Source: an uncultured Erysipelotrichaceae bacterium
GTDB lineage: Bacteria; Bacillota_I; Bacilli_A; RFN20; CAG-826
NCBI GenBank assembly: GCA_902768335.1
Contig: CACXKR010000003.1
Span: 1 to 53,715 of the forward strand
Length of the DNA stretch: 53,715 bases
Reading direction: 5' to 3'
The notes beneath the pieces were generated by a model, which worked only from the letters and a program-made list of their open reading frames with translations, was not told where the DNA came from and did no database searches. Shown here one piece after another: positions 2,483 through 33,795 of this stretch (positions within the stretch are counted from its first letter, which is position 1; the number at the start of each line of letters is the position of its first letter). The translations under genes and the position numbers were made by a program.

Positions 2483-2483
2483 G

Positions 2484-4615: not shown

Positions 4616-4668
4616 TTTGAGTAATTTAGAAAGCTTCCATTTCTTATGTATGGATAATAACTCGTTAA

Positions 4669-13622: not shown

Positions 13623-13889
13623 ATGATTATCATGGCATCTGCTGAAATCCGTCAAAATTACAATAAGGTGGCCGAAAAGTGCAAAGAGAGCGGTGAACCA
13701 ATTTACTTAACTAAAAACGGGCAAGGAGAGTTGGTTGTCATGGATATCGCTTCTTTTGAAAAACGCGAGCAAGAACTTAGAGCGCAAGAATTGGTTCTTG
13801 AAGCGTATTCATCTTATTTGGCTGGCGATAAGACTTATTCTCCTGAAGAAGCTCACAAGCGTATAAGAGAAATGATTGAGGCAAAGTGA
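13623..13889 (+). CDS. Phd/YefM-family antitoxin
   Basis: SAEIRQNY...EPIYLTKNGQGELVVMD Phd fold signature; 88 aa; GTGA/ATG overlap with the toxin. Confidence 0.9.
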   Translation: MIIMASAEIRQNYNKVAEKCKESGEPIYLTKNGQGELVVMDIASFEKREQELRAQELVLEAYSSYLAGDKTYSPEEAHKRIREMIEAK

Positions 13890-14194
13890 TGGCTGTTTTA
13901 AAAATCGTTTTGACATCAAACGCATATGCCGATTGGCAGAATTGCGTTTCTTTTGTTTTGAATGCTTCAAAAGAAGCGGCTATAAAACTTGACGATGAAA
14001 TAAAAGCAACAATTGATAATTTGAGTAATTATCCAGAAAAGAATCCGATTTTTGAAATGAATCGAACTTTTCCATTTGTAGTAAGAAAATCGATTGTAAA
14101 TCGAAGATATATAATTTTATTTAGTATTAACGAACAAGAAATACTGGTTTATCGTATTCTCGACGTTAGAAGAAAATTTGAAGCATTAATCTAA
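13886..14194 (+). CDS. RelE/ParE-family toxin
   Basis: IVLTSNAYAD...LSNYPE...RYIILFSI...VYRILDVRR; size and position downstream of the antitoxin. Confidence 0.8.
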   Translation: MMAVLKIVLTSNAYADWQNCVSFVLNASKEAAIKLDDEIKATIDNLSNYPEKNPIFEMNRTFPFVVRKSIVNRRYIILFSINEQEILVYRILDVRRKFEALI

Positions 14195-17006: not shown

Positions 17007-17582
17007 ATGATGACTGGCCTAATTCTCGCTGGCGGATGTTCTAGCCGCGCTAAAACAAATAAATTGCTCCTGAAGGTCAATGATAAGCCATTAATTTTAA
17101 ATACAATCGCATCTTTAAGTTCGCTTGTGGATGAACTTGTCGTGGTGACAGGTAAATTCGACAAAGAACTTAGACCATATCTTAGCAATTTCAAAGTTGT
17201 TTATAACAAGGATTATGAACTTGGAATGTTTTCGTCTGTGAAAGCCGGAATTAAAGATATCGATTCTGATCTATTAATTCTTCCTGGAGATATTTCAAAT
17301 GTTTCTTCAAAAACAATAAGCGCAATCATTACTAACAAAGGAATCATCACTATACCAACATATAAAGGTAAAAGCGGTCATCCTTTATTTTTGAATAAAG
17401 AAATGGTGAACAAACTTAAACAAGAAAATATTAATTCAAATTTAAGAGCGTTCATTAATTCAAATATTGACTATGTCAATTATGTCGAAGTAGATGATCC
17501 GTTCATCAATTTCGATGTTGATACAATCGAAGATTATAATCGTTTAGTAAAGCAGGGAAAGGAACTAACTTATGAAAGCTAA
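17007..17582 (+). CDS. mocA: Molybdenum cofactor cytidylyltransferase-like NTP transferase (MocA/YgfJ)
   Basis: LILAGGCSSR..NKLLL, GMFSSVKAG, LPGD, GHP, DVDTIEDY; heads a xanthine-oxidase-family cluster. Confidence 0.75.
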   Translation: MMTGLILAGGCSSRAKTNKLLLKVNDKPLILNTIASLSSLVDELVVVTGKFDKELRPYLSNFKVVYNKDYELGMFSSVKAGIKDIDSDLLILPGDISNVSSKTISAIITNKGIITIPTYKGKSGHPLFLNKEMVNKLKQENINSNLRAFINSNIDYVNYVEVDDPFINFDVDTIEDYNRLVKQGKELTYES

Positions 17583-18351
17583 TTCTTATGTAAGCGTTGG
17601 CTCATGGCAAGAAGCTTACAAACTCCTAAAGGCCTCACCCAAAAACAAAATCATTGGTGGCGGTCTTTGGTTAAAGAAAGGAAACGCTCAAGTTGATACT
17701 CTCATTGACTTAAGCAGACTAAACCTTAAGAAAATCGAGGATAAAGGTGCCTATATTGAAATTGGCTCAATGGTCAGTCAAAGAGAACTCGAACAATCTT
17801 CATTGATTAAAGGTCTATCCAATGGAGTTATCTCTGAGGCCGTTTCTCAAATCATGGGTCCAGCTTTTAGAAACGTGGCCACTGTTGGTGGTTCCGTGTA
17901 CGGAAAGTATGGATTCTCCGATTTAATTGCGGTTCTTTTGGGATTTGAAGTCGAACTCCAATTCTATCCAAGTAAGACTATGTCTTTAGAAGAATATCTT
18001 GCTCAACCAGGTTTCTATGATGGAATTCTTACTCATATTAGAATTCAAAAGAAAGATGCTCGAGCATTCTTTAAAAAAGTTTGTTTAACTTCCTTGGATT
18101 ATCCAATCCTAAATATCTGTATCACCAAAGGTGAGAAATATGTTGTTGTCGTTGGATCACGTCCACTTGTTGCGACACGATTAACTAAGACGATGGAATA
18201 TCTTAATAATGGCGGTAGCGATTTTAAAGAAGCCGCTAGAATCGCTGCTACAGAAATTAAAGTTGGTGATTCTATCGCCACCAAAGGTGAATATCGTAAA
18301 GAACTCGTAAAAGTTTACGTTGAACGTGGACTTGAGGAGGTAAATAAATAA
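17572..18351 (+). CDS. FAD-binding subunit of molybdenum hydroxylase I (YgfM-like)
   Basis: IIGGGLWLK, IEIGSMVSQRELE, FRNVATVGGSV, SDL, EYRKELVKV. Confidence 0.85.
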   Translation: MKANSYVSVGSWQEAYKLLKASPKNKIIGGGLWLKKGNAQVDTLIDLSRLNLKKIEDKGAYIEIGSMVSQRELEQSSLIKGLSNGVISEAVSQIMGPAFRNVATVGGSVYGKYGFSDLIAVLLGFEVELQFYPSKTMSLEEYLAQPGFYDGILTHIRIQKKDARAFFKKVCLTSLDYPILNICITKGEKYVVVVGSRPLVATRLTKTMEYLNNGGSDFKEAARIAATEIKVGDSIATKGEYRKELVKVYVERGLEEVNK

Positions 18352-18806
18352 TGCTAGTGAAATTTAACCTCAATGGACTTGAAAAAGAAGTCAATGTTAA
18401 AGCTAATGAATATCTTTTAGATACTCTTCGCTCCATAGGCGTTAAATCCGTTAAGAAAGGTTGCAATGCCTCTTCATGCGGCGTCTGCACCGTTTTATTG
18501 GATGATAAACCAGTTTTGTCTTGCTCTATCTTAACCGTTAGAGTTGCTGGTCATAAAGTTGAAACTGTGGAATCAATTCAAGAAGAAGCCGCTAAATTAA
18601 GTGAATGCTTCTCTAAAGAAGGCGCTGATCAATGCGGTTATTGTAATGCTGCTTTTGCTCTTATGGTCCACGCTTTAAGAAAAGAAAATCCAAATCCAAG
18701 TGCTGAAGAAATTAAGGAATACCTAAAAGGTAATCTTTGTCGATGCACTGGTTATCAATCTCAACAAAAAGCCATCCGTGCTTATTTAGGGGGTGAAGAA
18801 AAATGA
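18351..18806 (+). CDS. 2x[2Fe-2S] subunit of molybdenum hydroxylase I
   Basis: KKGCNASSCGVCTV...SC; QCGYC; NLCRCTGY. Confidence 0.9.
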   Translation: MLVKFNLNGLEKEVNVKANEYLLDTLRSIGVKSVKKGCNASSCGVCTVLLDDKPVLSCSILTVRVAGHKVETVESIQEEAAKLSECFSKEGADQCGYCNAAFALMVHALRKENPNPSAEEIKEYLKGNLCRCTGYQSQQKAIRAYLGGEEK

Positions 18807-21115
18807 GAAAATTTAAAGTAGTTAATAATATTACCCCAAGTGTTGATGGTAAAGGTATCATGATGGGTCGCGCCGTCTTTACTGACGATCTCGCTGCTCA
18901 AAATTCTTTAGTCTTAAAAGTTTTAAGATCACCACATGCCTTCGCACATATCAGAGATATCGACACAAGCGAAGCTGAAAAATATCCAGGTGTAGCCTGT
19001 ATCTTAACTTATAAAAATGTCCCTCATGTTCCATTTACACGTGCAGGACAAGGTTATCCAGAACCATCTCCACATGATAAGTTCGTCTTAGACGAATATG
19101 TCCGTTATGTCGGCGATGAAGTCGCTGTTGTTGCGGCCGAAGATGAAGAAACTGCTCTTGAAGCAATGAAGCTCATCAAAGTCGATTACGAAGTGCTAGA
19201 GCCTGTTTTAGATTTTGAAAAGGCTATGGATAATGAATCGGTCATCCATCCAGAGGACAAGATTCATGAAATGTTCCCAATTGGTTTTGAGCCAAAAAGA
19301 AACATTGCGACTGCTTATGAAATGGAAGTAGGCAATGTCGAAGAAGAATTGGCAAAATGCGATTATGTTGTCGATGAAACTTTCTATACACAAGCTCAAG
19401 CCCATGCGATGATGGAGCCACACGCCTCCAATGCTCGTTTAGATGAGCACAATAGATTAGTGGTTTATTCTACAACCCAAACTCCATTCCACATGCGTCG
19501 TATCATTTGTAAGACGTTAGGCCTTCCAGTTGATAAGGTTCGCGTTATTAAACCCCGTGTTGGTGGAGGTTTTGGTGGTAAACAAGCTTTCCATGGCGAA
19601 ATGTTTGTTTCATTAGTTACTTTAAGAACCAATCGTCCTTCTAAACTCGTTTATACTCGTGAAGAAGTTTTCGGTTCTTCCTATACACGTCACCCAATGC
19701 GCATTGCATTGCGTATCGGTGCAAATAAAGATGGTAAAATCCAGGCAATTGATTGTCGTGCTTTAAGCGATACTGGTGCATATGGCGAGCATGCTTTAAC
19801 AGTCTTTATGATTGTCGGCTCAAAAGTTTTGCCACTTTATAACAAAGTTAAAGCAGTCAGATTTGGTGGCAAAGTTGTTTACACTAATCATGTTCCTGCT
19901 GGAGCATATCGTGGTTATGGAGCAATCCAAGGTAACTATGCCTTAGAATCAACGATTGATATGCTTGCGAAAAAGATGGGTATGGATCCAATCGAACTTC
20001 GTGAAATCAACTCGATGAAAGAAAAAGAAACATCCCCAATCTTTGAAATCATGGGTGAAGGTACCGAAGGTACTGCTATGATTATGGAGTCATGCAAGCT
20101 CCCGTACTGCATTAAACGTGGACGTGAACTTATGAATTGGGATGAAAAATATCCTGTTAAACAAGTCGGTCCACATAAAGTTAGATCTGTTGGTTGCGCA
20201 ATCGCTATGCAAGGTAGCGGAATCCCGTTCTTAGATATGGGTTCTTGTACAATCAAACTCAACGATGGTGGCTCATACATGGTCACTGTTGGTGCAACTG
20301 ATATTGGACAAGGTAGCGATACCATTATTTCTCAAATTGTTGCTGAAGAACTTGGCACAACTATGGATAAGATTATTATTTATTCTTCTGATACTGACTT
20401 AACTCCATACGATTGTGGTGCTTATGCTTCATCTACAACCTATGTTAGTGGTAATGCTGCTTATAACGCTGCTGTCAAGATGAGAGAAAGACTCATTAAA
20501 GAAGCTGCCCAAGAATTAAAAGTTAAGCCCGATTTAGTTGAATTTGACGGCAAAACCTTCACTTCTGGTGACAAGAGTGTCACTTTAGAAGATCTTTCAA
20601 CAGGTCGACTTTACAATAACGATACACATCAAATCGCTGTTACAGAATCCTTTCACGGACATGTTTCGCCACCTCCATTTATGGCGGCATTTGGCGAATT
20701 TGAATTCGATACAGAAACCTATGAATATAAGATGGTGAAGTATGTCACCATCACTGATTGTGGTACAACCATCAACCCAATGCTTGCTAGAGGGCAAGTT
20801 GAAGGTGGTGTCATTCAAGGTTATGGAATGGCTTCTAGTGAAGAAGTTTTATACACTCCAAATGGTAAATTGGTGTCAGATAATTTCGATATGTACCACA
20901 TTCCAACTGTAAAAGAAGTTGGTGAACTTGTTACTGAATTTGCTGATTCGTATGAGCCAACTGGCCCATTTGGTGCTAAATCAGTTGGTGAAATTGGTAT
21001 TGATACACCTCCAGCCGTTTTATGTAACGCTGTTTATAATGCCTTTGGAGTTAGAATCCATAGCTTACCAATCACTCCTCAAAAGATTTTTGAGGCAATG
21101 AAAGAGAAAAAATAA
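18803..21115 (+). CDS. Molybdopterin-binding subunit of molybdenum hydroxylase I (XdhD-like)
   Basis: QAHAMMEPH, GGGFGGKQ, GAYRGYGA, GATDIGQGSDT, YASSTTY, GQVEGG, GPFGAKSVGE. Confidence 0.9.
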   Translation: MRKFKVVNNITPSVDGKGIMMGRAVFTDDLAAQNSLVLKVLRSPHAFAHIRDIDTSEAEKYPGVACILTYKNVPHVPFTRAGQGYPEPSPHDKFVLDEYVRYVGDEVAVVAAEDEETALEAMKLIKVDYEVLEPVLDFEKAMDNESVIHPEDKIHEMFPIGFEPKRNIATAYEMEVGNVEEELAKCDYVVDETFYTQAQAHAMMEPHASNARLDEHNRLVVYSTTQTPFHMRRIICKTLGLPVDKVRVIKPRVGGGFGGKQAFHGEMFVSLVTLRTNRPSKLVYTREEVFGSSYTRHPMRIALRIGANKDGKIQAIDCRALSDTGAYGEHALTVFMIVGSKVLPLYNKVKAVRFGGKVVYTNHVPAGAYRGYGAIQGNYALESTIDMLAKKMGMDPIELREINSMKEKETSPIFEIMGEGTEGTAMIMESCKLPYCIKRGRELMNWDEKYPVKQVGPHKVRSVGCAIAMQGSGIPFLDMGSCTIKLNDGGSYMVTVGATDIGQGSDTIISQIVAEELGTTMDKIIIYSSDTDLTPYDCGAYASSTTYVSGNAAYNAAVKMRERLIKEAAQELKVKPDLVEFDGKTFTSGDKSVTLEDLSTGRLYNNDTHQIAVTESFHGHVSPPPFMAAFGEFEFDTETYEYKMVKYVTITDCGTTINPMLARGQVEGGVIQGYGMASSEEVLYTPNGKLVSDNFDMYHIPTVKEVGELVTEFADSYEPTGPFGAKSVGEIGIDTPPAVLCNAVYNAFGVRIHSLPITPQKIFEAMKEKK

Positions 21116-21116
21116 A

Positions 21117-22421
21117 ATGAACGATCTTCTTGTTAAAAATGGTTTAGTTTACATTAATGGTAAATTTGAGAAAGTTAATCTCGCTATTTTAAACGAGAAG
21201 ATTTCTTATATCGGAAAAGAAGAAGTCGATGCAAAAGAAGTGTTTGATGCATCAAATCTTAAGGTTCTGCCTGGCTTAATTGATCCGCATGTTCACTTTG
21301 AGCTCAACTGCGGAAAAGTTACTTCTGTTGATGATTTTTATTATGGTAGCAAATGCGCAATTTATGGTGGAGTAACCACAATTGTTGATTTCCTAGATCC
21401 AACTAGAAATGCCGAAGAACTCGAAAAATCGTTCTATGAAAGACTTAATTTAGCAAAGAAATCACTTGTCGATTATCATTTCCACGCTTGTATTAGAGAA
21501 CCTAACGGGTCTTTGGAAGAATACGTAAAGAAAACCGTTGAGCTTGGAATGAGAACAATTAAGCTATTTACAACATATTCCGATACGCATCGTCGAACTT
21601 ACGATAAAGACATCATTGAATTACTCAAATTAAGCAAAAAATACAACGTGCTGATTTGCGCGCATATCGAGAATGACGATTTAATCGATTTAAGAGATAA
21701 ATATACATATAAAGATTTATCTTTATCTAGACCAAGCATAGCCGAAACTAGTGAAGCCTTAAAACTCGCTAAATATGTTAAAGAGACCGGCGGAAACTTC
21801 TATATGGTTCATTGTTCAAGTGGACAAACTCTTAAAGCTTTAAAAGAACAATTCAGAGATATTTTGAATAAAAACTTCTATGTTGAATCTTGTCCTCAAT
21901 ACTTTATCTTTAATAATTCTGTTTTAGATGAAGAAAACGGCAGATTGTTTACTTTCGCTCCTCCACTAAGAAGCGAGAGGGAAAGACAACTTTTAGTAGC
22001 GAATTACAAAGATATTATTTCAATTGGAACCGATCATTGTGCATTTATGAAGGCTGATAAAGACTGCCCAACTTTAAAAGGTTTCCCACTTGGAGTTGGT
22101 GGTGTCGAACACGCCTTCCCACTTATGTATAGGCGCTTTGGAGATGAGATTATCGATAAGATGAGCGTTAATACTGCCAAGGTACAAGATTTCGTATCTA
22201 AAGGATTGATTAAGGAAGGCCTTGATGCTGATTTAGGATTTTTTAAAGAAGATGATTCTACAATCGAAAACGAAAACCATGGAAAATGCGATTACTCAAT
22301 CTACGACGGCTTAATTTCTTCTGGACAATTTATTCATGTTTTAAGAAGAGGAAGCTTTGTGTTAAAGAATAGAAAGATTATTGAATCGCAGGGAAAATTG
22401 ATTAATTGTGGGGAAAAATAA
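21117..22421 (+). CDS. Dihydropyrimidinase/hydantoinase-family cyclic amidohydrolase (HyuA-like)
   Basis: PGLIDPHVH, GGVTTIVDF, IKLFTTY (carbamylated Lys), CAHIEN, MVHCS, PPLR, GTDHCAF. Confidence 0.85.
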   Translation: MNDLLVKNGLVYINGKFEKVNLAILNEKISYIGKEEVDAKEVFDASNLKVLPGLIDPHVHFELNCGKVTSVDDFYYGSKCAIYGGVTTIVDFLDPTRNAEELEKSFYERLNLAKKSLVDYHFHACIREPNGSLEEYVKKTVELGMRTIKLFTTYSDTHRRTYDKDIIELLKLSKKYNVLICAHIENDDLIDLRDKYTYKDLSLSRPSIAETSEALKLAKYVKETGGNFYMVHCSSGQTLKALKEQFRDILNKNFYVESCPQYFIFNNSVLDEENGRLFTFAPPLRSERERQLLVANYKDIISIGTDHCAFMKADKDCPTLKGFPLGVGGVEHAFPLMYRRFGDEIIDKMSVNTAKVQDFVSKGLIKEGLDADLGFFKEDDSTIENENHGKCDYSIYDGLISSGQFIHVLRRGSFVLKNRKIIESQGKLINCGEK

Positions 22422-22422
22422 A

Positions 22423-23721
22423 ATGAAAGCAATTATTAATGCAAGAATTTATGATTACACAAATTATATCGAAAACGGATATGTTATTTTTGATAAGAAA
22501 ATCATTGAAGTAGGTTCTATGAAAAATTATAAAAAACCTGCAGAAGCCAAAGAAATTGACTTTACAGGCGATTTATTAATTCCTGGTTTTGTTTGTAATC
22601 ATGCTCATATTTATTCGATTTTTGCTAGGGGTTTAGCTCTTCCTTTCAACCCTAAAAACTTTCAAGACATCCTTGATCAAATGTGGTGGAAGCTTGATGC
22701 AAAACTTACTAATGAAATGACCTATTATAGCGGTATTGCTGCTTCATACGAATTCTTACTCAATGGCGTCACAACTGTTATAGATCATCATGCGAGTGGT
22801 GAAATTAAAGGTTCTCTTAAAAAATTAAGTAAGGCCGTCAGTGGTGTCGCAGGCATAAGAGGCCTATATTGTTTTGAAACATCTGATCGCTATAATGTCG
22901 ATGAATGCATTAAAGAAAATATTACTTTTGCAAAGAAAAACCAAAACGATAAAGTTCATGGCTTATTTGGAATGCACGCTTCAATGTCGTTAAGCGATAA
23001 AACACTTAAGAAGATTTCTAAGAAAAACGAATTCCCAATTCATGTTCATGTTGCTGAATCAGATATGGACGAGGAAGACTCGTTAAACAAATATAAAATG
23101 AACATTATTTCTAGATTTGATAAATATGGCTTAATTAAACCTAATTCTTTGATTGTTCATGGTGTTTTCCTTAATGATGACGAACTTGAGATTATCAAAA
23201 ATAGAAAAGCCTATATGGTCGTTAATACAACTTCGAATATGAATAACGCTGTCGGATTACCTGATGTTAAAACTTATCTTGAACACGATATTCCGGTTAT
23301 GGTTGGCAACGATGGTTTGAATTCTAATATGGCTAGCGAATATATGAATGTTTTATATACTTCGCATCTAAAAAATAAACAACCAACAGAGCTTAACTTA
23401 GGGGATGTCTTAAATATGCTTAAGACTTCCTATAAATATATATCAAATACCTTTGGTATTAAGTTAGGAGAAATCGCCAAAGATTACGAAGCCGATTTCT
23501 TAAGAGTGAAATACACTCCGTTTACCAAGATGGATGAAAGTAATGCTTTTGGTCATCTCTTCTATGGAACCTTCCCTAACTTTAAACCTTCTCATGTATT
23601 TATAGGTGGCAAGCTCCAAGTTAAAGACTACAAAGTTGTTAATAAAAAACTGAATAATGAGTTTACTAAATGCAATACTTATTCCAAACAACTTTGGGAT
23701 TCATTAAAGGAGGCAAAATAA
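22423..23721 (+). CDS. ssnA: SsnA-like metal-dependent amidohydrolase
   Basis: PGFVCNHAHIYSIFARG, ILDQMWWKLD, GVTTVIDHHAS, IHVHVAES, VHG, NNAVG, GNDG. Confidence 0.75.
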   Translation: MKAIINARIYDYTNYIENGYVIFDKKIIEVGSMKNYKKPAEAKEIDFTGDLLIPGFVCNHAHIYSIFARGLALPFNPKNFQDILDQMWWKLDAKLTNEMTYYSGIAASYEFLLNGVTTVIDHHASGEIKGSLKKLSKAVSGVAGIRGLYCFETSDRYNVDECIKENITFAKKNQNDKVHGLFGMHASMSLSDKTLKKISKKNEFPIHVHVAESDMDEEDSLNKYKMNIISRFDKYGLIKPNSLIVHGVFLNDDELEIIKNRKAYMVVNTTSNMNNAVGLPDVKTYLEHDIPVMVGNDGLNSNMASEYMNVLYTSHLKNKQPTELNLGDVLNMLKTSYKYISNTFGIKLGEIAKDYEADFLRVKYTPFTKMDESNAFGHLFYGTFPNFKPSHVFIGGKLQVKDYKVVNKKLNNEFTKCNTYSKQLWDSLKEAK

Positions 23722-24818
23722 TGGATTTAAGTTGTAAATTTGATGGCATTAAGATTGATAACCCATTGATGCCAGCAGCAGGACCTTTAGTTGGCGATGC
23801 TGAAAAAATGTTATGGTTAGAGCAAGTTGCTGGTTGTGGTGCAATTGTCGCGAAAACGATTTCGACAAAAGATGCTCACATTCCACATCCATGTATTTAT
23901 GGTGACAAAGATTACATTATGAACTGTGAACTTTGGACAGAATACACCAAAGAAAAATGGCTCAATGAATTCTTACCTTATTACAAGAAACATTCAATCG
24001 GTAAGCCTTTAATTATCTCGGTTGGTTACACCAAAGAAGATATGGAAGTGCTTATTCCACTTCTTGATAAATACGCCGATGCATTTGAAGTATCTACCCA
24101 CTATGTTGGAAATGATTTAAATGCTTTAGGAGAAACAGTTAGAACAATTCGTTCATTAACTAAAAAACCTTTTTATATGAAGATTTCAGCCCACATGCCT
24201 GACCCAGAAGGTTTTGCTCATACGATTAAAGTCAATGGTGCGAATGGTGTTGTGGCAGTTAACTCTCTTGGTCCATCCATGAAAATTGATATCGAATCAC
24301 GTAATATCATCTATGGAAATGCTAAAGGTTTTGCTTGGACTAGCGGACCATATATTAAAAACATTGCTTTAGCAACCGTCTATACAATTAAGAATGCTGA
24401 ACCATCTTTAACTGTTATTGGTGTTGGTGGTATTGCCTCTGCAAGCGATGTTATCGAATTCCTCCTTGCTGGTGCTTCGGCAGTTCAAATGCTTTCAGCG
24501 GCTATGTTAAGAGGAAAAGATTTATATAAGAAGATTATTGATGATCTACCAGCCGCACTTACAAAATACGGTTTCTCTTCAGTCGAGGAAGTTATTAATA
24601 CAAAATTAGTTAACCGTGTCGCTTATGAGAAGGGCGACGTTCCACAACTTGATGCTGGAAAATGTATTAAATGTGGAACATGCAGCAAAGTGTGTCCATA
24701 TTTTGCAATTGAAATGGATGGCACTCCAAAATTCAATAAAGAAAAATGCTTCCGTTGCGGCCTCTGCGTCAGCAAATGCCCAACCAAAGCTCTCAAATAT
24801 ATAAAGGCGGAAAAATAG
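23721..24818 (+). CDS. Dihydroorotate-dehydrogenase/PreA-like FMN protein with C-terminal 2x[4Fe-4S]
   Basis: NPLMPAAGP, AKTIS, VNSLGP, VIGVGGIASASDVIEFLLAGASAVQ; CIKCGTCSKVCP and CFRCGLCVSKCP; no NxSCP active-site motif (EVSTHY instead). Confidence 0.8.
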   Translation: MDLSCKFDGIKIDNPLMPAAGPLVGDAEKMLWLEQVAGCGAIVAKTISTKDAHIPHPCIYGDKDYIMNCELWTEYTKEKWLNEFLPYYKKHSIGKPLIISVGYTKEDMEVLIPLLDKYADAFEVSTHYVGNDLNALGETVRTIRSLTKKPFYMKISAHMPDPEGFAHTIKVNGANGVVAVNSLGPSMKIDIESRNIIYGNAKGFAWTSGPYIKNIALATVYTIKNAEPSLTVIGVGGIASASDVIEFLLAGASAVQMLSAAMLRGKDLYKKIIDDLPAALTKYGFSSVEEVINTKLVNRVAYEKGDVPQLDAGKCIKCGTCSKVCPYFAIEMDGTPKFNKEKCFRCGLCVSKCPTKALKYIKAEK

Positions 24819-26917
24819 TGAAATCGAAATATCCAACATCAGTTAAAAAAGTGGATTTTGCAGCGAAATTTGCTGGAGAAGCACTTTTTAGTGATGACAT
24901 TCCTTTCGATAACGCCCTGTTTGCTAAGACGTTAAGATCTACAATTTCGAGAGGAAAAATCAAGGCGGTTCATCTTCCTAAACTTCCAGAAGGTTATTAT
25001 TATTTTGACCGCAGCGATGTAAAAGAAAATGTTGTCAATATCATCTTTTCCGATTGGCCAGTCTTTGCCGATGGTAGAGTTAACTATCTTGGTGAAGGAA
25101 TCGGCATTTTTGTCGGTGAAAACATGGAAGTTTTGAACAAACTCGTTGAAGAAACAAAGGTTGATTATATTGAAGAAACTCCTGTTTTTGATATGAGCGA
25201 ATCATACATCCATAAAGCTTTTAAAAAGGGCGACTATGAAGCCGCTAAGAAGAAAGCAAAAAGAGTTATTAAACGTACTTACGAGACTTCGTTCCAGGAA
25301 CAAGCATATCTCGAAAACCAAGCAATTATTGCATATTTTGATGAAAACGATAAACTTACGCTCACAGGATCGATGCAGTGTCCATTCTATATCAAACGGG
25401 CTGTAATGAGGTCTTTAGGGCTTGGCGATGATCAAGTTAGAGTAATTCAACCAGCAGTTGGTGGAGCCTTTGGTGGCAAAGAACATTATCCATCGCTAAC
25501 TGGCTCTCAAGTTGCAACCGCTGCACTTAAGCTTCATCGTCCAGTAAAAATGATTTATGAAAGACCGGAAGACATTGTTTTCTCTACAAAACGTCATCCT
25601 TCTCATAGCGAATATGAAGCTTTGATTGGCGAAAACAATGAGATTCTAGGTATTAAAGCCCACATCAAATTGGATGGTGGTGCCTATAAAGGTTGCAGCG
25701 GTGTCGTTTTATCACGTGCTCTAATTGCATCGTGCAACGCATATGTTTTTGAAAATATTGATATTGTTGGCGATGCTTGCATGACAAATCATGTTCCTTG
25801 TGCAGCATTCAGAGGTTTCGGCTCTCCTCAAACTATTTTTGCGATGGAAATGTTTATTCATCATATCGCAAAAGAAATTGGGGTTGATCCACTCGAACTT
25901 AGATTAAAATACCTTGCAAAACATGGTGATGTTACTACAAATAGTGGACATTTCCACGATCCAATAATCCTACCAGAACTTATTAACAAAGCAATGGAAA
26001 TGAGCGATTACAAACGCAAGGTAAAGGAATATTCAAAACCCGGATGTCTCAAAGGAATTGGTATGTCTTTATTCCTTCATGGATGCGGATTTACTGGTTC
26101 GGGAGAATCAGACATTATTAAAGGCAAAGTTAAATTAGTTAAAGACGAAAATGACCATGTCTATTGCTATGCTTCTAGCGTTGATATGGGTCAAGGTTGT
26201 AGAACAACTTTGAAAAGGATTGTCGCAAAAAATCTCGGTCTACCAGATGAACAAGTAACGATGGATGGACCAGATACAGATGCAACTCCAGATACAGGCC
26301 CGACCGCAGCTTCTAGAACAATTATTATTGTTGGATTCCTTATGGAAAAAGCTGCGAAGAATCTTAAAAAGATTTGGAAAAAAGGTGTTAGACAAGAGCA
26401 TATCGAACCTTATGTCGGTCCAAGTTATATCCATTGGGACGAAGCGACTATGCAAGGTGATGCCTATCCATCATATTCTTGGGGCGTCAATGTTGTAGAA
26501 GTTGAAGTTAACCCAATTACATATCAAGTTGAAGTTAAGCACACTTGGTCAACTTATGATGTTGGTCGAGTTGTCGATGAAAGAATCGCTGTTGGTCAAG
26601 CTGATGGCGGTCTACTTCAAGCACTTGGATATGGTTACTTAGAAAATTTGCGCTGCGAAAATGGTAAATTTAGACAAAAAGGTTTGACAGATTATATTGT
26701 TCCAACCGCAGTTGATGCACCTCCTATGGAAACTGCCTTTATTGACAATCCATTCATTTATGGTGCTGATGGAGCTAAAGGTATGGGTGAATTAACCTTT
26801 GTTGGTGGCGCTCCAGCTCTTGCTTTAGCAATTGAGAATGCAATCAAGAAAGAAATCCATTCTATTCCTGCTACTCCTGAATATCTTATGGAGGTAATTA
26901 ATAATGGCAAATATTAA
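24818..26917 (+). CDS. Molybdopterin-binding subunit of molybdenum hydroxylase II (XdhA-like)
   Basis: GTG start overlapping the upstream TAG; EQAYLE, GGAFGGKE, AFRGFGSPQ, DMGQG, TAASRT, GQADGG, GAKGMGE. Confidence 0.9.
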   Translation: MKSKYPTSVKKVDFAAKFAGEALFSDDIPFDNALFAKTLRSTISRGKIKAVHLPKLPEGYYYFDRSDVKENVVNIIFSDWPVFADGRVNYLGEGIGIFVGENMEVLNKLVEETKVDYIEETPVFDMSESYIHKAFKKGDYEAAKKKAKRVIKRTYETSFQEQAYLENQAIIAYFDENDKLTLTGSMQCPFYIKRAVMRSLGLGDDQVRVIQPAVGGAFGGKEHYPSLTGSQVATAALKLHRPVKMIYERPEDIVFSTKRHPSHSEYEALIGENNEILGIKAHIKLDGGAYKGCSGVVLSRALIASCNAYVFENIDIVGDACMTNHVPCAAFRGFGSPQTIFAMEMFIHHIAKEIGVDPLELRLKYLAKHGDVTTNSGHFHDPIILPELINKAMEMSDYKRKVKEYSKPGCLKGIGMSLFLHGCGFTGSGESDIIKGKVKLVKDENDHVYCYASSVDMGQGCRTTLKRIVAKNLGLPDEQVTMDGPDTDATPDTGPTAASRTIIIVGFLMEKAAKNLKKIWKKGVRQEHIEPYVGPSYIHWDEATMQGDAYPSYSWGVNVVEVEVNPITYQVEVKHTWSTYDVGRVVDERIAVGQADGGLLQALGYGYLENLRCENGKFRQKGLTDYIVPTAVDAPPMETAFIDNPFIYGADGAKGMGELTFVGGAPALALAIENAIKKEIHSIPATPEYLMEVINNGKY

Positions 26918-27377
26918 ATTTACCTTAAACAATAAAGTAGTCGAAGTTGATCTTGATCCTTCGATGAGACTTATTGACGCTTTGCGCTTACACTTTAAAC
27001 TTACCGCAACCAAAGAAGGATGCGGCGAAGGAAGTTGTGGTGCGTGCGTAGTTCTCATGGATGGCAAAGGTATTAATTCATGTTTGATGCCGCTTGCTAA
27101 TGTTAATGGTCATTCAATCATCACTCTCGAAGAATTCAAGAAAACAAAACAATTCAAAGTGTTAGAAGAATGTTTTGCTGATGAAGGTGGTTCACAATGT
27201 GGTTTCTGCACCCCAGGAATGATTTTTGCGGCTCAGTCTTTGCTTGCTAGCAATGCTCATCCAAGTGAAGAAGAAGTTCGCGAAGCTCTTTCTGGAAATC
27301 TCTGCAGATGTACAGGTTATCAATCAATCGTCAATGCTATTTTAAGAGCAGCGAAGGAAGGAGAAGGCTTATGGTAA
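26904..27377 (+). CDS. 2x[2Fe-2S] subunit of molybdenum hydroxylase II
   Basis: TKEGCGEGSCGACVV, QCGFCTPGM, GNLCRCTGY. Confidence 0.92.
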   Translation: MANIKFTLNNKVVEVDLDPSMRLIDALRLHFKLTATKEGCGEGSCGACVVLMDGKGINSCLMPLANVNGHSIITLEEFKKTKQFKVLEECFADEGGSQCGFCTPGMIFAAQSLLASNAHPSEEEVREALSGNLCRCTGYQSIVNAILRAAKEGEGLW

Positions 27378-28219
27378 AATACATCCCGGCTTCAAAAGAA
27401 GACGCTTTAAATTTCCTTGCTTCTCATGACGCTTATATTGTTGCAGGTGGAACCGATATGATGGTTCTAAAAAGAAATGCAGCAGGATTGCTTCCAAAAT
27501 TTGATAAGGATGTTTTATATATTTCCAACTTAAACGAACTTAATAAAATTTATGAAGATAAGGAATATATTCACATAGGCGCAACTGCAACATTAGATGA
27601 AATTTATAATCATCCTTTGACTCCAAAATTATTAAAAGAAGCTGTTGGGGAAGTTGCCTCAATAAATATTCGTCATTTTGCAACTCTTCCTGGCAATATC
27701 GCTAATGCCTCTCCAGCAGGAGATACGATTGTCATCGATTATCTTTTAGATGCTATTGTTAAACTCGAGTCCAAGAATGGCGTTAGATTAGTTAAAGCTG
27801 AAAACTTTGTCTTAGGCGTTAGAAAAGTCGACCGTAGAAGCGATGAACTAATTACTGAAATTATGTTCCCTCGTTTCTCCTATGACGGTGATATGTGGTA
27901 CAAAGTCGGTTCTAGAAAAGCTGATTCAATTTCAAAAGTGAGTGTTGCAGGTCTTTACTCTATAACAGATGGTAAGATTTCGAAATTTGCTCTCGCATTT
28001 GGCTCTACCGCTGTTACAGTTCGTAGAAGTCACGAATTAGAAAAAGAAATTGAAGGTTTAACTCAAAAAGAGCTTCTCGATAGATGCGAAGAATTTGTTG
28101 AAAAATATTCTAAGATTATTTCGCCTATCGATGATCAACGTTCCAACAAAGAATATCGTTTAATGGTTGCGAAAAATATTACTCGTAAATTCATTAAACA
28201 AGTTGGGGAGGGAAAATAA
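27371..28219 (+). CDS. FAD-binding subunit of molybdenum hydroxylase II
   Basis: VAGGTD, IHIGATAT, IRHFATLPGNIANASPAGD, PIDDQRSNKEYR. Confidence 0.9.
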   Translation: MVKYIPASKEDALNFLASHDAYIVAGGTDMMVLKRNAAGLLPKFDKDVLYISNLNELNKIYEDKEYIHIGATATLDEIYNHPLTPKLLKEAVGEVASINIRHFATLPGNIANASPAGDTIVIDYLLDAIVKLESKNGVRLVKAENFVLGVRKVDRRSDELITEIMFPRFSYDGDMWYKVGSRKADSISKVSVAGLYSITDGKISKFALAFGSTAVTVRRSHELEKEIEGLTQKELLDRCEEFVEKYSKIISPIDDQRSNKEYRLMVAKNITRKFIKQVGEGK

Positions 28220-29466
28220 TGAGTTCATACATAAAAGGTTATAAATGCACGATTTGCGGGGAATTCTTTAAACCAGATGAGGTCAATTTAACCTGCCCAC
28301 ACTGTGGCGAAAAAGGTATTCTCGATGTTGTTTATGACTACGATGCATTAAAATCTATTCTCACAAAAGAGTACTTTAAGAATAATAAAAACTATTCAAT
28401 GTGGAGATACGCTCCAATCATGGGAATTAAAGAAGACCATATTGATGAGATGCTCCGTGTTGGATGGACTCCTCTTTACCACGCTAGAAATCTAGAAAAA
28501 GAATTAGGCGTGAAAAGACTATATGTAAAAGATGATGGATTAAATCCAAGCGGATCAAGCAAAGACCGTGCTAGTGGTGTAGCGGTTTTAAAAGCTATTG
28601 AAGCTGGCGCGAAAGTTATTGCTTGTTCTTCAACTGGAAATGCCGCATCAAGCTGTGCTTGTCAGGCTGCTCATATGGGACTTAAAGCAGTTATCTTTGT
28701 TCCAAAAAGAGCCCCGATTGGCAAAGCCACTCAAATTTGTTTATACGGTGCTACTTTAGTTAAAGTTGATGGTGACTACAAAGCCGCTTTCTCTTTATCA
28801 AAGCAAGCTATCGATAAATACGGTTGGTATAACCGTAATGCCGCCATTAATCCTTTCATGGTTGAAGGCAAGAAAACTGTTGCAATGGAAATAGCCGAGC
28901 AACTTGACTTCGAACCAACCGATTGGGTAGCAATATCTGTAGGCGACGGATGTTCTATTGGTGGTGTTTATAAGGGATTTGCAGAGTTTTACAAGTTAGG
29001 TTTAATTAAACGAATCCCAAAAATCTTAGGTGTTCAATCAACTGGATGCGCACCATTTGTTATTTCAAGTCAAACTGGTGAGCCTCTAAAAGAAGCTGAT
29101 GAGAACACTCTTGCTGATTCTATCGCTGTTGGTATTCCTCGTAACCCTGTGAAAGCTATTAATGCAGTGAAGCTTTCAAAAGGTGCTTGGATCGCTGTAC
29201 CAGATGAGGACATTATTAAAGCAATGTCTTTATTAGGAAGAACCGAAGGCATCTTTGGTGAACCTGCTGGTGTAGCAGCAATAGCGGGAATTAGAAAAGC
29301 TGTTGAACAAGGTATCATCTCGCCTGATGAAACCGTTACAACAATCGTTACTGGAAACGGTTTAAAAGATCCAGTCAATGGTCAAAAGGCAGTATCCATG
29401 CCTGAACCAATGGAACCAAATCTTGAAACATTGGATAAATTTTTGAAAGAAAAAGGAGCAATTTAG
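28219..29466 (+). CDS. Threonine-synthase-like fold-type II PLP enzyme with N-terminal Zn ribbon
   Basis: CTICG...CPHCG; LNPSGSSKDR (PLP Lys); SSTGNAASS; EGKKT; VGDG; context argues against a housekeeping thrC. Confidence 0.8.
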   Translation: MSSYIKGYKCTICGEFFKPDEVNLTCPHCGEKGILDVVYDYDALKSILTKEYFKNNKNYSMWRYAPIMGIKEDHIDEMLRVGWTPLYHARNLEKELGVKRLYVKDDGLNPSGSSKDRASGVAVLKAIEAGAKVIACSSTGNAASSCACQAAHMGLKAVIFVPKRAPIGKATQICLYGATLVKVDGDYKAAFSLSKQAIDKYGWYNRNAAINPFMVEGKKTVAMEIAEQLDFEPTDWVAISVGDGCSIGGVYKGFAEFYKLGLIKRIPKILGVQSTGCAPFVISSQTGEPLKEADENTLADSIAVGIPRNPVKAINAVKLSKGAWIAVPDEDIIKAMSLLGRTEGIFGEPAGVAAIAGIRKAVEQGIISPDETVTTIVTGNGLKDPVNGQKAVSMPEPMEPNLETLDKFLKEKGAI

Positions 29467-29467
29467 T

Positions 29468-30838
29468 ATGTCAAAAATTCCATTCGGACCAACGTATGAT
29501 GAAATGCTTAATCCATCGCATGTTGATCCAGAAACTAGAGCAAAAGCTCTCAAGGCACTCAAGGAAAACGAACTTGATCCTATTAACCTCTTCAACATCA
29601 CTTGGAAAAATGAAAAGAATGAGGTTAACAAAATCGTCTTACCAAAAGCTTTAACTGGCGTCGATGCAAACATCGTCGTTATGCTCGGTAAGTATTTCCC
29701 ATCTGGCTCACATAAAGTTGGACCAGCTTATGCAACACTTATTGAAGGATGTGTTGATGGTGAAATTATCCCAGGAAAACACACAATTCTTGGTCCTTCA
29801 ACTGGTAACTTTGGTATCGGCACAAGTTATATTACTAACTTAATGAAATATGATGCCATCGTCATCATGCCAGACAATATGTCTAAAGAGAGATATGAAA
29901 GAATCTCTAAATATGGCGCAAAACTCGATTTAACTCCAGGTTCTGAGTCTGATGTTATTCTCACCTTAGAGAGAACATATGAACTTAAGAAGAATCCTCT
30001 TAATAGAACCTTAGCTCAATTCGAGCTTCTTCCAAACTACAGATTCCATCGTCATGTCACAGGTAATTCTGCTATCGAAGCTGTCAAAGGAATCGGTAAT
30101 GGTCGTATTGCCTGTTTCTGTTCTGCCCCTGGTAGCGCAGGTACATTAGCGGCTGGCGATCAAATCAAAGTTGCATTCCCAGAATGTAAAGTTGTTGCTT
30201 TAGAACCACACGAATGTTCAACTCTTACCAATGGTGGTCTTGGACAACATCGTATCGAAGGTATCGGCGATAAGATGATTACTCTTATCCACAACGTTTT
30301 AACAACCGACTTCATCACTCAAATTATCGATGAAGATTGCGTCCGTGGTTTAGCAGTCATTCATGAAGGTAGCGATATTCTTGTTAAACACGGTGTTGAT
30401 CCAAAAGTTGCTAAAGCAATGACCGATTTATTTGGTGTCTCTGGCATCTGCAATATTTTAGGTGCTATCAAGATGGCTAAATATCTTAAACTCGGACCAG
30501 ATGATAACGTTGTTACAATCGCGACTGACTCATTTGATAGATATCCATCAGTCATCAAGAATCTCCATGAAAGAGAACTTGAAGTTACTGATAACGTTTT
30601 AGAAAGATGGTTTGAAGATGTCTTTGCTGAAGCTGATACCCGTTACGTTTTAGATACACGTGGCAAAGAAGCTAAAGAAAAACTCTTCACTCAAAAGGAA
30701 AAAGATTGGCTTAAATTTGGCTACAAACAAGAATATCTTGATTCAATGAGAAAACCAGAATTCTGGGAACACGAATATGCTTTAGTCAAAGAATATGATA
30801 AAAAGATTAAAGAAATGCGTGGAAAGGAAATCAAATAA
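29468..30838 (+). CDS. Cysteine-synthase-like fold-type II PLP enzyme, unknown substrate
   Basis: FPSGSHKVG (PLP Lys), GPSTGNFG, SAPGSAGT, HRIEGIGD; long N- and C-terminal extensions. Confidence 0.75.
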   Translation: MSKIPFGPTYDEMLNPSHVDPETRAKALKALKENELDPINLFNITWKNEKNEVNKIVLPKALTGVDANIVVMLGKYFPSGSHKVGPAYATLIEGCVDGEIIPGKHTILGPSTGNFGIGTSYITNLMKYDAIVIMPDNMSKERYERISKYGAKLDLTPGSESDVILTLERTYELKKNPLNRTLAQFELLPNYRFHRHVTGNSAIEAVKGIGNGRIACFCSAPGSAGTLAAGDQIKVAFPECKVVALEPHECSTLTNGGLGQHRIEGIGDKMITLIHNVLTTDFITQIIDEDCVRGLAVIHEGSDILVKHGVDPKVAKAMTDLFGVSGICNILGAIKMAKYLKLGPDDNVVTIATDSFDRYPSVIKNLHERELEVTDNVLERWFEDVFAEADTRYVLDTRGKEAKEKLFTQKEKDWLKFGYKQEYLDSMRKPEFWEHEYALVKEYDKKIKEMRGKEIK

Positions 30839-32059
30839 ATGAAGGTTTCATTTGAAGAAATTCTCAAAAAAGCAGAGTCGTATCAAAAAGATATGACCAA
30901 ATTCCTTCGTGACATGGTTAAGATTCCTTCCGAATCATGTTGCGAAAAGGAAGTCGTCCTTCGCATCAAACAAGAGATGGAAAAAGTTGGTTTCGACAAA
31001 GTCGAGATCGATCCAATGGGCAACGTATTAGGTTATATTGGCCATGGTAAACACCTCATTGCTATGGACGCTCACATCGATACTGTCGGTATCGGTGAAA
31101 TCAAAAACTGGAAGTTTGATCCATATGAAGGTTTCGAAGACGATACCTACATCGGTGGTAGAGGAACTTCCGACCAAGAAGGTGGCATGGCTTCAATGGT
31201 TTATGCTGGTAAGATTATCAAAGATCTCGGTCTTGAAGATGACTACACTTTATTAGTTACTGGTACAGTTCAAGAAGAAGATTGCGATGGCTTATGCTGG
31301 AAATACATCATTGAACAAGACAAAATCAAACCAGAATTTGTCGTTTCGACCGAACCAACTTCTTGCCAAATCTATCGCGGCCATCGTGGACGTATGGAAA
31401 TTAAAGTTAATGTCCGCGGTATTTCTTGCCATGGTAGCGCACCAGAACGTGGTGACAACGCCATTTACAAAATGGCTGATATCATCAAAGATATTGAAAA
31501 ACTTAATGAAACCGGCCTTGCCTATGATCCATTCTTAGGAAAAGGTACAGTTACCATCTCTCAAATCTTCCATAAATCACCAAGCCGCTGTGCGGTCGCT
31601 GATGGTTGCTGGATCTCTCTTGATAGACGTTTAACTGTCGGTGAAAATGATAAGACCTCAATTGCTGAAATTGAAAACTTACCATCAGTCAAGAAAGCTA
31701 AAGCTGAAGTTACGATGTACGATTATGAACGTCCAGCGTATACTGGCTTAGTTTATAAACAAGAATGCTACTTCCCAACTTGGGTTATTCCTGAAGATTC
31801 CATTTATGTTCAATCATTGAAACAAGGATATGAAGGATTATTCAAAAAAGCACCAGTCATCGATAAGTGGACATTCTCCACAAATGGTGTTTCCATTATG
31901 GGTAGATTCGGCATTCCATGTCTCGGATTTGGTCCTGGCGATGAAAAAGAAGCTCACGCACCAAATGAAAAGACAAGAAAACGTGATTTAGTCATCTGTG
32001 CTGCATTATATGCAACTATCCCAGGACTATATCTCGAAAATTTAGCGAAGCAAAAATAA
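30839..32059 (+). CDS. ygeY: YgeY-family M20 metallo-amidohydrolase
   Basis: [64 protein letters not shown]. Confidence 0.85.
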
Positions 32060-32068
32060 GGAGAAGTT

Positions 32069-33079
32069 ATGAAAAAAATTGAACCAAAATTCGCTGGTCG
32101 TCATCTTATTACCTTAGAAGATTTTACTAAGGAAGAAATCGACTACATCTTAAAAGTCTCTCACGAAATGAAAGACGCCTTCTATGCCAATGAAGAAACT
32201 CAATGGTTAGTAGGCAAAACTGGTTTCTTGATGTTCTTTGAACAATCAACCAGAACCAGAAACTCTTTTGAGTCAGGTATGGCTCAACTCGGTGGACATG
32301 CAACATTCTTAGATACATCTATGATGCAAATCGCTCATGGTGAATCTGCAAAAGATACGGCTGTCATCCTCTCAAGCTTTGGTCATATGATCGCTTGTAG
32401 ATATTGTAACTGGGGCCTTGGCAACAAATATATCCGTGAAATGGCCAAATGGTCCACAGTCCCAATAATTAACTTACAATGTGACCTTTATCACCCAATG
32501 CAAGCCTTAGCAGACTTAATGACAATCGAAGATGAATTTGGTAAGACCAAAAACCTCAAAGTTTCCGTCATTTGGGCTATGGCTACAACTCATAAGAAAC
32601 CAATTTCAGTTCCAGTTTCACAAGTCTTATTATTCCCACGTTATGGAATCGATGTGACTCTTGCTTATCCAGAAGGTTATGATTTACCAGACTGGGTTAT
32701 TGAAAAAGCCAGAAAGAACGCTGCTGAAAATGGTGGATCATTAACAATTACCCACGATATGGATGCCGCATACAAAGATGCAGACGTCGTCTTCCCAAAG
32801 AACTGGGGAAGCTGGGTTACCAACCAATCAACAACAGTCGTTGATGATGCTTTATTAGCACTCAAATCCTGGAAGTGTACACCAGATAAGATGGCACTTG
32901 CTAAACCAACTTGTCGTTATATGCACGCTCTTCCAGCTGACAGAGTCAACGAAGTTGTCGATGAAGTTATTGATGGACCACAATCAGTCGTCTACCAAGA
33001 AGCCGAAAACAGAATTCACACTGCAAAAGCTGTTATGGCCTTATTTGTCCACGACAAAGTTCCATCAGATAGACGTTAA
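32069..33079 (+). CDS. Carbamoyltransferase (OTC/AOTC/YgeW superfamily), substrate uncertain
   Basis: STRTR carbamoyl-phosphate motif, HPMQ, ENR; MHALP instead of HCLP; WAMATTHKKPISVP loop. Confidence 0.85.
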   Translation: MKKIEPKFAGRHLITLEDFTKEEIDYILKVSHEMKDAFYANEETQWLVGKTGFLMFFEQSTRTRNSFESGMAQLGGHATFLDTSMMQIAHGESAKDTAVILSSFGHMIACRYCNWGLGNKYIREMAKWSTVPIINLQCDLYHPMQALADLMTIEDEFGKTKNLKVSVIWAMATTHKKPISVPVSQVLLFPRYGIDVTLAYPEGYDLPDWVIEKARKNAAENGGSLTITHDMDAAYKDADVVFPKNWGSWVTNQSTTVVDDALLALKSWKCTPDKMALAKPTCRYMHALPADRVNEVVDEVIDGPQSVVYQEAENRIHTAKAVMALFVHDKVPSDRR

Positions 33080-33143: not shown

Positions 33144-33179
33144 ATATCTATTGTACATACATTGGATATATGTTATAGT
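33144..33179 (+). promoter_or_regulatory. TA promoter with overlapping operator
   Basis: TTGTAC-N17-TATAGT with extended TG; imperfect inverted repeat ATATCTATTGTA-ca-TACATTGGATAT (10/12) over the -35. Confidence 0.55.
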
Positions 33180-33201
33180 TTTATCGAAGGAGGTAAGAAT
33201 T

Positions 33202-33486
33202 ATGAATGCAACCGCAGCAGTTTATGTCAAAGTTGATGCTTCTGACAAAAAGATAGCTGAAACAATAATGCATAGTTTAGGCGTGACTCCATCAAGCTTA
33301 ATCCAAATGCTTTACAAGCAAGTTATCTTAAAACGTGCAATTCCATTTGATATTTCTTTACCTAGCAAGCCAATTGCAACTGGTGATATGACCGAAGAAG
33401 AAATTTCTGAATTGGTTCAAGAAGGAATCGATTCGGCGAAAGATGGAACCTACACATCGGAAGAAATAAGAAAGATGCTAGGATAA
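33202..33486 (+). CDS. RelB/DinJ-family antitoxin
   Basis: VYVKVDASDK..AETIMHSLGVTPS..IQMLYKQVILKRAIPFDI; SD GGAGG. Confidence 0.85.
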   Translation: MNATAAVYVKVDASDKKIAETIMHSLGVTPSSLIQMLYKQVILKRAIPFDISLPSKPIATGDMTEEEISELVQEGIDSAKDGTYTSEEIRKMLG

Positions 33487-33489
33487 ACT

Positions 33490-33795
33490 TTGTATAAAGT
33501 AGCCTACTCAATCAAGTTTTATATAGACATTTGGTTTATAAAATCGCACATTTCACTTGTTCTAAAAGACGAGAAAGCTGCCGAAACATTATTTATTCTA
33601 ATAATGGATAAGGCAGACTCGTTGTGTGATTTTCCGGAAAGATATCCCAAGATAACGATATTGAATCGGAAATACCATCGAATGCCTGTAAAAAACTTCA
33701 ACATCTATTATTGTGTAGACAAAGTTACTAAAACAGTCACTATCGCAAGGGTCTTGTATAGCGGTAGAGATATCAATCAAGTTGCAATTAATTAA
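33490..33795 (+). CDS. RelE/ParE-family toxin
   Basis: TTG start; YKVAYS...LCDFPERY...YHRMPVKNFNIYY...VTIARVLYSGRD. Confidence 0.75.
   Translation: MYKVAYSIKFYIDIWFIKSHISLVLKDEKAAETLFILIMDKADSLCDFPERYPKITILNRKYHRMPVKNFNIYYCVDKVTKTVTIARVLYSGRDINQVAIN

Follow-up and report, generated by a model that had tools for sequence, protein, structure and literature searches.

In the reductive route of urate degradation, urate is converted to 2,8-dioxopurine, the ring is reduced and then opened by SsnA and HyuA, and the resulting 2,3-diureidopropionate loses its two ureido groups via YgeW (or UacY) and YgeY to give 2,3-diaminopropionate (DAP), which the terminal enzyme YgeX/DpaL (diaminopropionate ammonia-lyase, EC 4.3.1.15) converts to pyruvate and ammonia (bioRxiv 10.1101/2025.05.19.654654; 10.1101/2025.04.24.650524). 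YgeY is the enzyme that strips the ureido group to yield diaminopropionate, YgeX reportedly acts equally well on the D and L forms of DAP, and the hydantoinase of the pathway is D-specific (bioRxiv 10.1101/2025.05.19.654654); DAP accumulates in ygeX mutants (bioRxiv 10.1101/2025.04.24.650524), and Lys77 and Asp120 are the candidate catalytic residues of the E. coli enzyme (PMC4000059). The pathway was worked out in 2025 in two YgeX users, E. coli and Clostridium sporogenes. Here we describe a variant of its last step in contig CACXKR010000003.1 (assembly GCA_902768335.1), analyzed as a window of 53,715 nucleotides, in which two adjacent pyridoxal 5'-phosphate (PLP) enzymes of fold-type II, one ThrC-like and one CysK-like, stand in the place of YgeX.

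The window belongs to a 'Bacilli bacterium' metagenome-assembled genome (MAG) of about 1 Mb (989 kb, 89.4% complete) from a rumen or gut bacterium. Two intact open reading frames (ORFs) on its plus strand, each with a single PF00291 (PALP) match, encode the 415-residue ThrC-like enzyme (positions 28219-29466; 261 bits) and the 456-residue extended CysK-like enzyme (29468-30838; 69.5 bits), and are followed on the same strand by ygeY, encoding an M20 hydrolase (30839-32059; TIGR03526, 692.6 bits against a cut-off of 321.5). The upstream gene, for the flavin adenine dinucleotide (FAD) subunit of a xanthine dehydrogenase (XDH)-family enzyme, overlaps the ThrC-like gene in a TAATG junction; the ThrC-like and CysK-like genes are separated by 1 nt and the CysK-like gene and ygeY by 0 nt, with a GGAG-type ribosome-binding site ahead of each of the three starts. 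Both PLP genes, linked by translational coupling, belong to a urate/purine operon of the reductive (2,8-dioxopurine-type) kind, in which ygeY comes next, and this operon carries the other enzymes of the published pathway (XDH-type, UacX, SsnA, HyuA, carbamoyltransferase, carbamate kinase, and YgeY). In the genome at its given completeness, nothing exceeded the cut-off (276 bits) of the YgeX/DpaL model NF006058, the best match being the ThrC-like protein itself with 51 bits. The first-pass annotation of this DNA, which had placed a Zn-ribbon ThrC-like enzyme and an extended CysK-like enzyme before ygeY where YgeX would be expected, was exact in both ORFs and is borne out by the genome-wide search.

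The ThrC-like protein matches solved threonine synthases with E 1e-65 across the catalytic domains and exceeds the cut-off of the threonine synthase model TIGR00260 (216 bits against 167.1), while it falls below those of the closer equivalog models NF006050 (279.6 against 303) and NF004170 (214 against 421). It scores 61.5 bits on NF006058, for which the CysK-like protein had no listed match, and 85.8 bits against a cut-off of 324.9 on the cysteate synthase model TIGR03844. An N-terminal Cys4 zinc ribbon (C10, C13, C26, and C29) precedes the catalytic region with its PLP lysine, K115. The phosphate ligands of the Thermus thermophilus enzyme (K61, T88, N154, S155, R160, and N188) were transferred by alignment; the lysine (K115) and one asparagine are retained, whereas T88, S155, R160, and N188 correspond to A142, A209, M214, and D243. 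In 70 ThrC-like orthologues from urate-type clusters (44-91% identity) these replacements are uniform: alanine for T88 and for S155 and aspartate for N188 in 70/70, and leucine (47) or methionine (23) for R160; K115 and all four cysteines of the ribbon (CxxC...CxxC) are invariant. Five housekeeping ThrCs used as a control, three of which share a genome with the paralogue, retain the F-K, T, N, S, R, and N positions and are devoid of the zinc ribbon. In the same 89%-complete genome no match to PF00742 (hom) was found, and the best match to TIGR00191 (thrB) reached 54.8 bits against a cut-off of 168. Since the phosphate ligands are replaced and the homoserine pathway was not found, the ThrC-like protein is most probably not a threonine synthase in function. 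Judged from its sequence, it is a threonine synthase paralogue that has preserved its PLP lysine and carboxylate loop, and its phosphate pocket appears to have been turned into a carboxylate-bearing one, which would suit an ammonium group. The O-phospho substrates of cysteate synthase or SbnA type, named for relatives of these folds in the first-pass annotation, are thus unlikely for the ThrC-like enzyme, whose phosphate pocket is dismantled in all 70 orthologues.

The CysK-like protein scores below all curated cut-offs, with 129.8 bits against 350.95 on the best CysK/CysM model (TIGR01139), 83.5 against 394 on TIGR01138, and 54.9 against 349.95 on the SbnA model TIGR03945, and a separate true CysK is encoded elsewhere in the genome (385.5 bits against a cut-off of 351). 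Its AlphaFold2 model (pLDDT 91.6) has a CysK/beta-cyanoalanine synthase core (TM score 0.85 by target), the closest solved relatives being cysteine, beta-cyanoalanine, and O-ureidoserine synthases. With 456 residues against about 300 typical of CysK/CysM, it carries helical extensions at the N-terminus (about 55 residues) and C-terminus (about 95 residues) that are conserved and unmatched in the structure comparison. The PLP lysine K83 (in SGSHKVG), the Asn loop S111-T112-G113-N114 (in PSTGNF), the phosphate loop G222-S223-x-G225-T226 (GSAGT), and a serine opposite the pyridine nitrogen do not vary among 25 CysK-like sequences down to 34% identity. At a threshold of E 1e-30, a search of 1.8 billion representatives assigned 115 clusters to this family of modest size; a separate Atlas feature search led back only to the cluster of the protein itself and to sister clusters, which bear the names 'putative cysteine synthase' or 'PLP-dependent protein subunit beta'. 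The beta subunit of 2-amino-4-ketopentanoate thiolase (OrtB), suspected as an identity of the CysK-like protein, was dropped without a direct test, as the neighborhoods of distant relatives showed no ornithine-fermentation genes. Relatives at 44-46% identity adjoin another PALP gene outside urate clusters (L011:8644-11395; L012:3-2898); one such neighbor is ThrC-like, keeps the arginine, is without the zinc ribbon, and lies beside LarA-like and peptide-transporter genes, and the other encodes 500 residues and is followed by a radical-SAM gene.

With one genome taken per species, a scan with the CysK-like protein gave at least 545 relatives, of which the best 80 (72-92% identity) were used for locus counts. 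These loci come from rumen Bacilli MAGs, Izemoplasmatales, relatives of Acholeplasma, Moorella/Neomoorella, Desulfitobacterium, Thermacetogenium, and Clostridia, and include cultured carriers (Izemoplasma strains, Neomoorella stamsii, and Liberiplasma). Within 10 kb of the CysK-like gene, we found the ThrC-like gene and ygeY in 69/80 loci each, a carbamoyltransferase gene in 65/80, XDH subunits in 62/80, and ssnA in 49/80; among the 48 loci of at least 15 kb, the ThrC-like gene was present in 46, ygeY in 43, and at least one of the ygeY, ssnA, and XDH genes in 47. The association holds despite rearranged gene order (L049, L068), and the pair is co-located and co-inherited with ssnA, ygeY, hyuA, the YgfK/UacX reductase, an XDH-family enzyme, and the carbamoyltransferase. 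The proposed tie of the pair to ygeY/ssnA rather than to amino acid biosynthesis is therefore upheld by the counts for ThrC-like, ygeY, and XDH genes, and the part of the first-pass annotation's own refutation test that could be run on sequences did not refute the idea. The suggested supply or removal of serine-type intermediates by nearby serA/serC and sdaA fared differently: sdaA, which in the host genus lies 0.8 kb downstream of the last gene of the operon (the carbamoyltransferase gene), is near the CysK-like gene in 9/80 loci, all from close relatives, and serA/serC in 1/80, so that the link to serine genes is not conserved and is a local accident. The operon contains no conserved gene that would supply a nucleophile. 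A true YgeX was found in 1/80 loci, a Desulfitobacterium MAG in which it is wedged between the CysK-like gene and ygeY (L085:8720-13198).

The distribution of YgeX itself was compared in two genome samples. Among 300 genomes of the host's class (at least 85% complete), 48 have ygeY over the cut-off; three of these, all from one family, carry YgeX, and the remaining 45 are precisely those with the ThrC-like gene, which adjoins ygeY in every case. The CysK-like gene was found in 47/48, and in the single genome that lacks it the ThrC-like gene lies at a contig end. The second sample, 300 genomes of a Clostridia-type class, contains 27 genomes with ygeY, and YgeX is found in 16 of them. The cluster-type ThrC-like gene is present in all but one of the 11 YgeX-negative genomes and in 0/16 YgeX-positive ones, which have only housekeeping-level ThrC matches; the CysK-like gene accompanies it in 10/10 genomes and occurs in 2/16 YgeX genomes, on other contigs. 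For the two classes combined, 55 of the 75 ygeY genomes carry the ThrC-like gene only, 19 carry YgeX only, none carries both, and one carries neither, and the CysK-like gene is present in 54/55 ThrC-like genomes and in 5/19 YgeX genomes. The family with YgeX has the order CysK-like-YgeX-YgeY, whereas its sister architecture is YgeY-ThrC-like-CysK-like; the YgfK/YgeW-type genes are otherwise the same. In a YgeX-type Clostridium genome, a stand-alone monocistronic CysK-like gene lies far from the cluster, between rubrerythrin and ctsR-clpC, a setting that offers no hint of its function. One genome of the sister family has a ygeY match with eight in-frame stops (G095:C8:1381725-1382903), probably a decaying copy of the cluster.

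These distributions suggest that the pair is a conserved, co-inherited module of the reductive urate/purine operon that does the job of YgeX, the disposal of DAP released by YgeY. In its distribution the ThrC-like gene substitutes one-to-one for YgeX, so that its enzyme most likely acts on DAP and yields pyruvate, and the co-occurrence fits a like-for-like exchange of YgeX for the ThrC-like enzyme, with the CysK-like enzyme as an extra member, better than the different end product or added substitution step put forward in the first-pass annotation. We infer the substrate, reaction, and division of labor of the pair as follows. The ThrC-like enzyme would bind DAP, take the alpha proton, and eliminate the beta-amino group, releasing aminoacrylate that would hydrolyze to pyruvate and ammonia. 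The motif that reads DGNHG in five YgeX homologues is STGN in both enzymes of the pair (STGNA in the ThrC-like and STGNF in the CysK-like protein), with threonine as the equivalent of Asp120. As YgeX is reported to act on both isomers and has two candidate catalytic residues, Lys77 and Asp120, and both enzymes here have threonine at the aspartate position, a ThrC-derived lyase may accept a single DAP enantiomer, and our best guess is that the CysK-like partner would racemize or eliminate the other one. Such a stereochemical division of labor fits the pattern in which use of the ThrC-like gene appears to call for the CysK-like gene, and YgeX has this companion only sometimes. On balance, we consider it somewhat more probable than not that the ThrC-like enzyme is the YgeX analogue converting DAP to pyruvate; the CysK-like partner may supply the missing handedness.

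Several observations weigh against this reading. The related genomes do not count as independent, and the 55-versus-19 split rests on few families (five versus one in the first class). Outside the samples, a Desulfitobacterium MAG has adjoining ThrC-like, CysK-like, YgeX, and YgeY genes, and in one Clostridium MAG that has both genes, YgeX lies on another contig than the ThrC-like gene; hence exceptions to the exchange of YgeX for the ThrC-like enzyme do exist. Where YgeX and the CysK-like gene occur together, the YgeX copies retain the DGN aspartate, which weakens the stereochemical explanation for the CysK-like partner, and the threonine at the STGN position could itself serve as a base, which makes the single-enantiomer specificity tentative. 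Finally, the chirality of DAP in the pathway is deduced only from the D-specific hydantoinase and a D-aminoacylase-like enzyme.

A two-step route is an alternative that we consider unlikely. One enzyme would use water or sulfide to displace the beta-amino group from DAP (or the ureido group from albizziin), forming serine or cysteine, and the other enzyme or SdaA would eliminate this to pyruvate, or the amino acid would be kept for biosynthesis. Beta-replacement is typical of CysK-fold enzymes, including the closest solved relatives of the CysK-like protein, and in its natural last step ThrC adds water at C-beta; the two genes are nearly always together (54/55), and sdaA lies just downstream of the carbamoyltransferase gene in the host genus. 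However, the scarcity of sdaA and serA/serC near the pair, the presence of a normal CysK in the genome, and the operon's lack of a conserved nucleophile-supplying gene argue against this route, as does the family in which the CysK-like gene adjoins YgeX and the conversion of DAP to pyruvate is already direct.

Similarly improbable, in our judgment, is a joint reaction, in which the two proteins are both required, either as a heteromer or with the DAP lyase activity residing in the CysK-like protein and an accessory or regulatory part played by the ThrC-like subunit. The tight translational coupling with a 1-nt gap and the near-perfect co-occurrence of the CysK-like with the ThrC-like gene are in its favor. 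In matched genomes the CysK-like protein is also better conserved than the ThrC-like one, for example at 71-77% versus 55-63% identity; the median identities at 57 distant loci are 75% and 59%, respectively, a comparison biased by the choice of these loci by CysK-like similarity. In addition, distant CysK-like relatives again adjoin another PALP gene outside urate clusters. However, the full set of catalytic motifs is present in both proteins, the CysK-like gene occurs with YgeX (5/19) and alone, and the ThrC-like gene never accompanies YgeX in the samples, whereas a CysK-like lyase should itself exclude YgeX, rather than leave this to the ThrC-like gene.

There is little to recommend a role of the CysK-like enzyme in cofactor chemistry, that is, in sulfur or selenium supply for the molybdenum centers and not in the carbon pathway. 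The operon encodes two molybdenum hydroxylases, selD and yqeB were not found in the 89%-complete genome, so that these enzymes may need a sulfido ligand, and release or fixation of sulfide is possible for CysK-fold enzymes, with H2S-producing relatives among the structure matches. However, the gene has a fixed place beside the ThrC-like gene or YgeX and ygeY, not beside the XDH or MocA genes, and we know of no system for sulfuration of the molybdenum cofactor that uses a CysK-fold enzyme. The reading of the pair as a threonine synthase and a cysteine synthase of normal biosynthesis that lie in the operon by chance is close to refuted, for although automatic annotation would call the first protein a threonine synthase by its TIGR00260 score and database names of relatives of the second include 'cysteine synthase', all orthologues have lost four of the six phosphate ligands, which housekeeping ThrCs of the same genomes keep, hom and thrB were not found in the host genome, the CysK-like protein falls far below the CysK cut-off (129.8 against 350.95 bits) in a genome with a true CysK elsewhere, and the linkage to ygeY and XDH is kept across classes.

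Returning to the ThrC-like enzyme as the proposed YgeX analogue, the two share the fold-type II PLP superfamily and the operon slot by ygeY and are mutually exclusive in the sampled genomes, yet their sequence identity is about 22-26%, and the ThrC-like protein stays far below the YgeX/DpaL cut-off (61.5 against 276 bits on NF006058). YgeX is without a zinc ribbon, has the DGN aspartate, and works alone, whereas the ThrC-like protein has the ribbon and a threonine at that position, and its gene rarely occurs without the CysK-like gene. From threonine synthase (ThrC, EC 4.2.3.1; solved for Mycobacterium tuberculosis and T. thermophilus), the ThrC-like protein keeps the PLP lysine and the S-T-G-N loop, but T, S, R, and N have become A, A, L/M, and D, it has gained a Cys4 zinc ribbon, and its gene lies in a catabolic operon of a genome in which the homoserine pathway was not found. 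The CysK-like protein shares the core fold, the PLP lysine, the Asn loop, the Gly-rich phosphate loop, and the serine at the pyridine nitrogen with CysK, beta-cyanoalanine synthase, the O-ureidoserine synthase DcsD, and SbnA; it differs from these enzymes in being about 150 residues longer, in its lysine motif (SHKVG versus SVKDR), and in scoring below every curated cut-off.

Our literature search on urate clusters yielded no description of the pair, the sole mention being an Izemoplasma transcriptome that lists the two annotations (PMC8397711), and neither pathway paper mentions these enzymes (bioRxiv 10.1101/2025.05.19.654654; 10.1101/2025.04.24.650524). One of them colors every PF00291 neighbor as 'YgeX' (bioRxiv 10.1101/2025.05.19.654654), and an earlier survey required dpaL; thus, clusters with the ThrC-like and CysK-like genes are missed or mislabeled in surveys of either kind. 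The pair is a widespread variant of the known reductive urate pathway: about three quarters of the sampled ygeY genomes in the two classes carry the ThrC-like gene instead of YgeX, which makes this arrangement commoner in these samples than the textbook one and bears on the last step in many carriers of a pathway relevant to gout, to nitrogen cycling in ruminants and insects, and to DNA turnover in sediments. Automatic annotation as threonine synthase and cysteine synthase also inflates the predicted amino acid prototrophy of small-genome gut bacteria. A broader proposal, which we put forward tentatively and regard as doubtful, is that the pair represents an unrecognized two-enzyme ending of anaerobic purine degradation, in which the ThrC-like enzyme would be a threonine synthase turned into an amine-eliminating lyase and the CysK-like enzyme the first member of a functional class new among fold-type II PLP enzymes, such as a DAP racemase, a D-specific lyase, or a beta-replacement enzyme diverting the C3 unit to another amino acid. 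If such a two-enzyme ending is true, the ending known from E. coli and C. sporogenes would be a minority solution in nature. The cultured carriers make the function of the pair directly testable.

Both genes are covered at 90-99% identity, with the gene junctions bridged, by contigs from RNA libraries of four ruminant-gut studies. One contig of 2308 nt extends from the ThrC-like gene across the CysK-like gene to within ygeY, and another spans the junction of the XDH and ThrC-like genes; DNA carry-over is possible in such libraries, their depth cannot rank expression, and a two-gene contig is no proof of a single transcript. In a cultured Izemoplasma, the expression of genes annotated as 'threonine synthase' and 'cysteine synthase' rises along with that of XDH genes, an ornithine transcarbamylase (OTC), and an aminohydrolase (PMC8397711).

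The other genes of the operon lie on the same strand as the pair. A MocA/MobA-like transferase and the first XDH-family enzyme (FAD, 2Fe-2S, and molybdenum subunits; 17572-21115) occupy positions 17007-21115 and are followed at 21117-24818 by the HyuA-like hydantoinase, SsnA, and a UacX-type reductase (PreA-like, with flavin mononucleotide and 4Fe-4S), which start at 21117, 22408, and 23670, respectively. The second XDH-family enzyme (molybdenum, 2Fe-2S, and FAD subunits; 24746-28219) is encoded directly upstream of the PLP pair and is coupled to it. The 2,8-dioxopurine dehydrogenase of C. sporogenes is selenium-dependent (bioRxiv 10.1101/2025.04.24.650524), and the two XDH-family enzymes described here may differ from it, since neither selD nor yqeB was found in the 89%-complete genome. 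Downstream of ygeY, an OTC-type carbamoyltransferase of 336 residues (32069-33079) is the stand-in for YgeW; it scores below both cut-offs (261 against 280.85 bits for OTC and 183 against 500 bits for YgeW), which makes it a second swapped enzyme in the operon, and it is 93-96% identical within the genus. A carbamate kinase-like amino acid kinase (PF00696; 15908-16825) is encoded on the minus strand, divergent from the operon.

Outside the operon, a toxin-antitoxin cassette of RelB/ParE type (33151-33795) lies between the operon and sdaA, and a second ParE-like gene is found upstream (13886-14194). Further upstream, a PreT/PreA-like (dihydropyrimidine dehydrogenase-type) gene pair at 1250-3731 is followed by an insertion sequence element at 3815-5283, whose transposase, with rve and helix-turn-helix domains, is encoded on the minus strand.

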